Shown: piece after piece, positions 13,476-16,400 of the stretch | Layout: every line of letters begins with the position of its first letter | How positions within the stretch are numbered: the first letter of the stretch is position 1 | Assembly: GCF_003018115.1 (NCBI RefSeq) | Contig: NZ_CP027457.1 | DNA: 64,000 nt | Source of the DNA: Escherichia coli | Lineage (GTDB): Bacteria; Pseudomonadota; Gammaproteobacteria; Enterobacterales; Enterobacteriaceae | Reading direction: 5' to 3' (one strand) | Program-made: the position numbers

Positions 13476-16400
13476 TAACCGGATTGCACCACCAGACGAG
13501 CACGCCGCCAGTGCCGGTGGCCTTGCCGTTGGCATACTGGGGGCACTGAAAGCCGCAGGCGGACTGTGGTTTGGCTGGAGTGGTGAAACAGGGAATGAGG
13601 ATCAGCCGCTAAAAAAGGTGAAAAAAGGTAACATTACGTGGGCCTCTTTTAACCTCAGCGAACAGGACCTTGACGAATACTACAACCAATTCTCCAATGC
13701 CGTTCTCTGGCCCGCTTTTCATTATCGGCTCGATCTGGTGCAATTTCAGCGTCCTGCCTGGGACGGCTATCTACGCGTAAATGCGTTGCTGGCAGATAAA
13801 TTACTGCCGCTGTTGCAAGACGATGACATTATCTGGATCCACGATTATCACCTGTTGCCATTTGCGCATGAATTACGCAAACGGGGAGTGAATAATCGCA
13901 TTGGTTTCTTTCTGCATATTCCTTTCCCGACACCGGAAATCTTCAACGCGCTGCCGACATATGACACCTTGCTTGAACAGCTTTGTGATTATGATTTGCT
14001 GGGTTTCCAGACAGAAAACGATCGTCTGGCGTTCCTGGATTGCCTTTCTAACCTGACCCGCGTCACGACACGTAGCGCAAAAAGCCATACAGCCTGGGGC
14101 AAAGCGTTTCGAACAGAAGTTTACCCGATTGGCATTGAGCCAAAAGAAATAGCCAAACAGGCTGCCGGGCCACTGCCGCCAAAACTGGCGCAACTTAAAG
14201 CGGAACTGAAAAACGTACAAAATATCTTTTCTGTCGAACGGCTGGATTATTCCAAAGGTTTGCCAGAGCGTTTTCTCGCCTATGAAGCGTTGCTGGAAAA
14301 ATATCCGCAGCATCATGGTAAAATTCGTTATACCCAGATTGCACCAACGTCGCGTGGTGATGTGCAAGCCTATCAGGATATTCGTCATCAGCTCGAAAAT
14401 GAAGCTGGACGAATTAATGGTAAATACGGGCAATTAGGCTGGACGCCGCTTTATTATTTGAATCAGCATTTTGACCGTAAATTACTGATGAAAATATTCC
14501 GCTACTCTGACGTGGGCTTAGTGACGCCACTGCGTGACGGGATGAACCTGGTAGCAAAAGAGTATGTTGCTGCTCAGGACCCAGCCAACCCGGGCGTTCT
14601 TGTTCTTTCGCAATTTGCGGGAGCGGCAAACGAGTTAACGTCGGCGTTAATTGTTAACCCCTACGATCGTGACGAAGTTGCAGCTGCGCTGGATCGTGCA
14701 TTGACTATGTCGCTGGCGGAACGTATTTCCCGTCATGCAGAAATGCTGGACGTTATCGTGAAAAACGATATTAACCACTGGCAGGAGTGCTTCATTAGCG
14801 ACCTAAAGCAGATAGTTCCGCGAAGCGCGGAAAGCCAGCAGCGCGATAAAGTTGCTACCTTTCCAAAGCTTGCGTAGGAGCGGTTAATCTCCCGTAAGTG
14901 GAACTAACAGCACATCGACCTCACTTGAGGCAATAACTCTTTTCGCCGAGCAGGATGCTCGCGAAAAGAAACTGTGATTGTGATTACCGCAAATCACCAA
15001 ATCGAAATGATGTTTGTGACATACTTCCAGAATATGTTCGCTTAACTCACCGTAGGCAATAAACGTCTTGTCAACGGGATACCCCGCATCCTGAATTAAC
15101 TTATCAAGAAAGCTTTGCGTTTCTTCTTGCATCACGCTGCGTAAATCTTCAAGCATCGGCGCGGCTAATTGATTGTACATTTCCGGGTCGGAAGCGAGAG
15201 TAATTAAACTGATGTGTCCCTTTACTGGCCTGGCGATAGATACCGCTTTTGCCAGCAGTTGCTGACTTTCCGGTGTAACCGCAACAGCGACAAGAATATT
15301 GCTATAGCTCATAACCTGTTCCTTATTCTGTGAACTTCAGGTGACATTAAAGCTTTACTCCTAATGGAGAAACGACGCAATCCCAACTCGGTCAAACAGG
15401 TAAATATTAGTCTGATTATTAGTAAAGACAATTAATCAATCACTCCAGGTGATCATATAATTTCAAATGTAATTATAAGAAAATAGTGTACTGATTCTCC
15501 GCATTAAACAAGTGGTTAATATATGTAAAACATTTCATTAACATTAAGTTGATTGTTGCCTTTCTTTGTATTTAATTAGTTTGTTGTGCGGTAAGTGTCT
15601 GTTTAAAAATAGCTTATCTGGTATTGCATGAAAGTGATTATTTATAGCAGATGATTATTTACGGTGAGTTATTTTAACTGTGCGCAACATCCCATTTCGA
15701 TTATTCCTGTTTCATTTTTGCTTGCTAGCGTAGCGAAAAACTTTTTAACAGATTGAAATACACCCAAAACAAAAGTATGACTTATACATTTATGTTAAGT
15801 AATTGAGTGTTTTGTGTGATCTGCATCACACATTATTGAAAATCGCAGCCCCCCTCCGTTGTATGTGCGTGTAGTGACGAGTACAGTTGCGTCGATTTAG
15901 GAAAAATCTTAGATAAGTGTAAAGACCCATTTCTATTTGTAAGGACATATTAAACCAAAAAGGTGGTTCTGCTTATTGCAGCTTATCGCAACTATTCTAA
16001 TGCTAATTATTTTTTACCGGGGCTTCCCGGCGACATCACGGGGTGCGGTGAAACCGCATAAAAATAAAGTTGGTTATTCTGGGTGGGAATAATGCATACC
16101 TCCGAGTTGCTGAAACACATTTATGACATCAACTTGTCATATTTACTACTTGCACAGCGTTTGATTGTTCAGGACAAAGCGTCCGCTATGTTTCGTCTCG
16201 GCATAAATGAAGAAATGGCGACAACGTTAGCGGCACTGACTCTTCCGCAAATGGTTAAGCTGGCAGAAACCAATCAACTGGTTTGTCACTTCCGTTTTGA
16301 CAGCCACCAGACGATTACTCAGTTGACGCAAGATTCCCGCGTTGACGATCTCCAGCAAATTCATACCGGCATCATGCTCTCAACACGCTTGCTGAATGAT

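Follow-up and report, generated by a model that had tools for sequence, protein, structure and literature searches.

An uninterrupted flhDC control region in a Shiga-toxin-producing Escherichia coli, and what the absence of an insertion sequence says about motility

The region upstream of flhDC is a documented hot spot for insertion sequences (IS) in laboratory strains of Escherichia coli K-12 (PMC5100188, PMC5493358, PMC11237407), as the initial annotation of the locus described here correctly stated, and the IS1 and IS5 alleles of laboratory K-12 increase flhDC expression and motility (PMC5100188, PMC11237407). The locus raises the question of whether the opposite state, an IS-free region followed by intact flagellar genes, marks a motile strain that has not been adapted to the laboratory, which is what that annotation had concluded. 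We addressed this question within a 64-kb stretch of E. coli DNA (the window), to which all positions refer unless K-12 coordinates are given; negative and positive offsets are relative to the flhD transcription start.

The uspC-flhD intergenic region and its insertion targets

Open reading frames and orthology with K-12 identified positions 15313-16091 as the entire intergenic region between uspC and flhD, whose start codon is the ATG at 16092. The region lies between these two divergent genes and upstream of flhDC-motAB-cheAW, which is the place of the flhDC control region (Table 1). The only reading frames within it are two of 40 aa each, which we put down to chance.

Table 1 Features of the flhDC locus and of the yecE prophage in the window
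Feature	Position	Strand	Remarks
uspC (universal stress protein C)	14884-15312	-	142 aa, the K-12 length, with one aa difference; divergent from flhD and bounding the control region
flhDC control region	15313-16091		779 bp, 34.8% GC, no insertion
K-12 IS hot spot, -476 to -96 from the flhD transcription start	15418-15798		positions from PMC5100188, mapped with the start at 15894; empty here
CATTTATG, -107 to -100	15787-15794		8-bp target duplicated around IS1H in MG1655; single copy here
TTAA, -99 to -96	15795-15798		IS5 target in W3110, MC4100, DH10B and others (W3110-P alignment; PMC5100188); unoccupied here
cAMP-CRP site TGTGATCTGCATCACA, putative	15815-15830	+	centred at -71.5; the K-12 site ends in CACG
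flhD promoter, predicted	15859-15887	+	-35 TTGTAT (15859-15864), 17-bp spacer, -10 TACAGT (15882-15887)
flhDC 5' leader	15894-16091	+	198 nt, identical to K-12
AsflhD antisense RNA, mapped position	15894-16114	-	K-12 1978175/6-1978395; sequence identical to K-12 (RefSeq annotation; PMC9600491)
flhD	16092-16442	+	116 aa, 100% nucleotide identity to K-12
flhC	16445-17023	+	192 aa, 100% nucleotide identity to K-12
motAB-cheAW, tar-tap-cheRBYZ, flhBAE	17150-31709	+	13 further genes, all intact
Integrase	42859-44145	-	PHROG
CI-like repressor	48486-49265	-	PHROG
Anti-repressors	50605-52475		
O-like replication protein	52693-53604		PHROG
DnaB-like helicase	54472-55911		PHROG
Q antiterminator	57222-57659		PHROG
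stx1A	58166-59113		
stx1B	59123-59392		
645-aa gene	59896-61833		annotated as yjhS esterase in related phages

The K-12 MG1655 chromosome and the window are colinear in reverse orientation, with ~99% identity, and align in two blocks. K-12 1,951,472-1,978,502 corresponds to window 42819-15787, and K-12 1,979,271-1,995,063 corresponds to window 15794-1, the last of these K-12 positions lying within uvrY, where the window starts. The blocks join at 15787-15794, where MG1655 has the 768-bp IS1H between two copies of CATTTATG as read in the window orientation. With IS1H and one 8-bp duplicate removed, the K-12 sequence comes to 779 bp and aligns to all 779 positions of the window without gaps; the two differ by four substitutions, at 15429, 15447, 15676 and 15830 (-465, -447, -218 and -64). 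BLAST detected neither IS1 nor IS5 homology across the whole 64-kb window, and alignment to K-12 derivatives that carry IS1 or IS5 (MG1655 and W3110-P) likewise placed no IS in it. The description of this ~780-bp region as continuous and IS-free was therefore borne out. Because the alignment is base for base, the absence of an insertion is settled by it, and a chance test does not apply to such a claimed absence.

The same locus is occupied in the IS-activated alleles of K-12, in which IS1H lies at -107 to -100 (sequenced MG1655 and RP437) or IS5 lies at the TTAA at -99 to -96 (W3110, MC4100, MC1000 and DH10B), and the exact targets of both elements, CATTTATG and TTAA, are present at 15787-15798. 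The window differs from these alleles in having neither an element nor a target-site duplication: no insertion is found at about -476 to -96, and the hot-spot targets occur in single copy. The native IS-less form of K-12 (BW25113, NCM3722 and IS-free MG1655 stocks) shares the flanking genes and the 779-bp length, and aligns without gaps at 99.5% identity; the four substitutions that separate it from the window include the change from TCACG to TCACA at -64. Natural B1/A-type and Shiga-toxin-producing isolates (STEC719, O8:H28 BMH-17-0027, SE11 and O111:H11 88-19539) are 99.9-100% identical over the 779 bp and show no notable difference, the window carrying another copy of a common allele. Many natural isolates, of animal, human, food and water origin, carry the 779 bp with 100% identity. 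We are highly confident that the flhDC control region of this wild-type Shiga-toxin-producing E. coli, at 15313-16091, is native, ancestral and uninterrupted, flhDC being the class I flagellar master operon. An IS-free flhDC region is already known and ordinary.

Downstream of this region, the window holds 15 flagellar and chemotaxis genes, namely flhD, flhC, motA, motB, cheA, cheW, tar, tap, cheR, cheB, cheY, cheZ, flhB, flhA and flhE. All 15 have the K-12 length, are free of internal stops and differ from K-12 by 0-3 aa each (FlhA has 692 aa), so that the flh/mot/che cluster is intact, as a motile strain would require. The earlier statement that the downstream regulon lacks frameshifts holds for these 15 genes, which are the part of the regulon that the window covers; the flg and fli clusters, fliA and fliC included, lie outside it.

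Two further observations concern the comparison with K-12 in this part of the chromosome. Between the flhD ATG and the start of motA, the only differences are at 17035 and 17038, just past the flhC stop, and both fall within the stretch equivalent to the annotated small RNA MotR (window ~16987-17081). Farther away, yecH (5574-5813) has 90.0% nucleotide identity to K-12, with 8 of 79 aa differing, whereas its neighbour genes are at 98-99.5%; this patch of local divergence possibly arose from recombination.

Interruption of the region among complete genomes

At least 80% of the control region was found in one place in 5271 of 5426 complete E. coli genomes. A 481-bp query (15380-15860, -514 to -34), designed so that an insertion of at least 740 bp splits the match, gave a split match in 168 of 5419 genomes (~3%), the IS-free state accounting for ~97%. 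The IS1 junction of MG1655 was present in 47-49 genomes, all of the K-12/MG1655 type and ~4.64 Mb in size, and the IS5 junction at TTAA in ~55 K-12 laboratory derivatives, including W3110, MC4100, DH10B, MC1061 and HMS174. Subtraction of the ~104 genomes interrupted at these two K-12 sites leaves ~64 interrupted genomes, a remainder in which any further K-12 derivatives are counted together with other strains. The IS5-family element ISKpn26 was found at the same TTAA hot spot in two clinical isolates (~5.0-5.2 Mb). IS insertion upstream of flhD at the K-12 hot spot occurs outside laboratory strains too, and interruptions are mostly, not exclusively, a K-12 laboratory feature. Uninterrupted regions, for their part, are found in the laboratory: the K-12 genome H44 is IS-free across all 779 bp, and BW25113 is natively IS-free (PMC11237407).

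Some of the interrupted genomes deserve separate mention. Both ISKpn26 isolates are human clinical strains, 2021CK-01361 from the USA (NZ_CP107720.1) and 21221 from Germany (NZ_CM190152.1), and flhD of 2021CK-01361 is annotated as 327 nt, compared with 351 nt. Two genomes labelled 'chicken faeces, China', KR2009 (NZ_CP040664.1) and EK2009 (NZ_CP040663.1), have the MG1655-specific IS1 junction, K-12 protein accessions and a size of ~4.60 Mb, and they look like K-12 derivatives. In KR2009 the 15 bp that flank IS1 towards uspC (window 15780-15794) are missing, suggesting a deletion next to the element.

Predicted control elements upstream of flhD

The flhD transcription start was placed at ~15894 from the length of the leader, which we take to be 198 nt as in K-12. 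Two cross-checks agree with this placement. The IS5 target TTAA, reported at -99 to -96 in PMC5100188, falls at 15795-15798, the exact IS5 site in W3110-P; and the annotated end of AsflhD, K-12 1,978,395, maps to window 15894 (RefSeq annotation; PMC9600491). A consensus promoter/terminator scan missed the predicted flhD promoter, whose -35 element matches 3 of 6 bases, and the only minus-strand match of the scan (15700-15671) was discarded, being below shuffle expectation. No SNP relative to K-12 occurs from 15831 to 16442, and between -63 and the last base of flhC the two sequences do not differ, leaving the leader, AsflhD, FlhD and FlhC unchanged. The 480 bp upstream of the promoter have 27-37% GC, compared with ~50% in the flanking genes, a profile that fits the K-12 hot spot, which is AT-rich, H-NS-bound and duplex-destabilised (PMC5493358). 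An Rfam gathering scan returned no family within 15313-16091; no Rfam model was found for AsflhD or the flhDC leader, so this result is uninformative about them.

The CRP site, with its centre at -71.5, the weak sigma-70 promoter and the leader of 198 nt stand at the spacing expected of an flhDC control region. For the CRP site, both the assignment and the centre are what we take to be those of Soutourina et al. 1999. Sequence identity to K-12 is the basis on which the promoter, the CRP site and the RcsAB box were assigned, and the functions suggested for the promoter and its regulators are those of the K-12 literature. An RcsAB-box-like sequence, TAGGAAAAATCTTA, at 15898-15911 (+5 to +18) is presumably a further element of this kind. 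The regulators of flhDC include H-NS, OmpR, LrhA, RcsAB, QseB and others, and the K-12 flhDC leader is a target of CsrA and several small RNAs.

By analogy with K-12, the weak promoter would initiate transcription at ~15894, and cAMP-CRP bound at its putative site would activate it. The ~480 bp of AT-rich DNA farther upstream would bring in repressive input from the nucleoid and from regulators, as in K-12, and the leader, overlapped by antisense AsflhD, would be a target of post-transcriptional control. Since no mobile element is inserted, flhDC would be expected to be under normal environmental control, not de-repressed as it is with IS1 or IS5 in many K-12 stocks.

Alternatives, motility and strain background

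Because repeats can be mis-assembled, we considered whether the real genome has an IS at flhDC that was lost from the assembled sequence; this was the sole reason for raising the matter, and no support for a dropped IS was found. An IS copy normally interrupts a short-read contig and does not disappear from it, dozens of independent complete genomes match the region base for base, and the hot-spot targets are single-copy without a duplication scar; we regard such a loss as extremely improbable. A natively uninterrupted region might still not be equivalent to that of K-12, in that the A at -64 would bind cAMP-CRP better and give higher or more catabolite-responsive flhDC expression. Position 15830, the last base of the CRP palindrome, is A in the window and G in K-12, so that the half-site reads TCACA instead of TCACG and the window site is a perfect TGTGA-N6-TCACA palindrome with two consensus half-sites. 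The exact A-bearing 60-mer is the majority form, present in 3155 of 5182 matched complete genomes, O157:H7 included, with allele frequencies that are lower bounds because the 95-99% identity class mixes the K-12 G with other SNPs; A at -64 is the common allele, and K-12 carries the less common form. Expression could differ from that of K-12 owing to the four upstream SNPs, of which one lies in the CRP site. However, the argument for an effect of the -64 allele on expression is one of sequence comparison, and CRP binding usually depends only modestly on the outermost base of a half-site, which counts against stronger binding. We consider better CRP binding in the window possible, though unlikely. 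It is more doubtful still that flhDC would be transcribed more strongly, or with greater dependence on cAMP, from the majority A allele than from that of K-12. If it were, a CRP site weakened specifically in K-12 would account for some of the 'cryptic' motility seen in IS-free K-12, and hence for laboratory stocks being strongly selected for IS insertions, and natural strains would rarely need, or rarely tolerate, IS activation (~64 interrupted genomes outside the two K-12 sites). The C-to-A change at -63 described in PMC5100188 affects the adjacent base and is not the A at -64; we draw no link between them.

The proposal that a strain lacking an IS and keeping its downstream genes intact is motile and not adapted to the laboratory accords with the concentration of insertions upstream of flhD in K-12 laboratory lineages, with the intactness of the 15 flagellar and chemotaxis genes that the window holds and with a strain that is clearly not K-12. 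Nevertheless, we find it improbable. To reason from IS-free to motile runs backwards, because in K-12 the IS-free state is one of poor or absent motility, which increases once an IS is inserted: the K-12 parents of IS mutants were non-motile, and the insertions raised flhDC expression (PMC5100188); in BW25113, flhDC is 'largely cryptic' (PMC5493358); and NCM3722 gained motility by the addition of IS1H (PMC11836070). This step is already refuted by IS-free, non-motile K-12 strains. Of 19 natural isolates tested, mostly pathogenic ones, 17 swam poorly or not at all in liquid medium but were motile in soft agar, through RflP-dependent control (PMC7157525), and a motile reading would also have to draw on the flg and fli clusters beyond the window. 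Neither can a non-laboratory origin be inferred from the absence of an IS, because ~97% of genomes are IS-free, the laboratory K-12 strains H44 and BW25113 (PMC11237407) among them; the same TTAA, moreover, can be occupied by an IS in clinical isolates. The species default is an IS-free region, a state that by itself does not predict the motility phenotype. The initial annotation's call of a motile strain is thus not upheld, whereas its call of a non-laboratory strain is right on other grounds, the ~1% divergence from K-12 and an Stx1 prophage in yecE.

This lambdoid prophage occupies 42820-64000 and extends past the end of the window. The alignment to K-12 ends at 42819, inside yecE, of which only nt 78-819 are present, abutting phage DNA. 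An integrase lies beside the disrupted yecE, followed by a lambdoid regulatory and replication module and by Q and then stx1A-stx1B, the arrangement of an Stx1-converting prophage at yecE (Table 1). The mature Stx1A chain is identical to PDB 1r4q at 293 of 293 positions, with Thr45, and the B subunit matches Shiga toxin B chains. We take Thr45 in Stx1A to be the form of the Shigella dysenteriae toxin. Among phage records, the nearest are Stx-converting phages, of which several have yecE as their integration site, and the nearest complete genomes are those of Shiga-toxin-producing E. coli (W24; O178:H19 2012C-4431; JNE141411), with 99.4-99.5% identity over 25 kb across the yecE junction. Because it carries a lambdoid Stx1 prophage in yecE, the strain is a Shiga-toxin-producing E. 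coli.

Three details of the prophage were also recorded. In yecE (42078-42893), the first ~26 codons are replaced by unrelated phage-derived sequence, and a mechanically called 271-aa ORF with a GTG start stays open. Rfam matches to isrK and C4 antisense RNA lie side by side at 51678-51866, within the anti-repressor gene region, and a match to STnc100 lies at 59471-59684, just downstream of stx1B.

The intact flhDC control region matters little in itself, as it is the species default and an exact match to dozens of sequenced isolates. Its use is corrective: the lack of an IS upstream of flhD cannot serve to call a strain motile or non-laboratory. The real signal of a wild, pathogenic background in this window is the Stx1 prophage in yecE.
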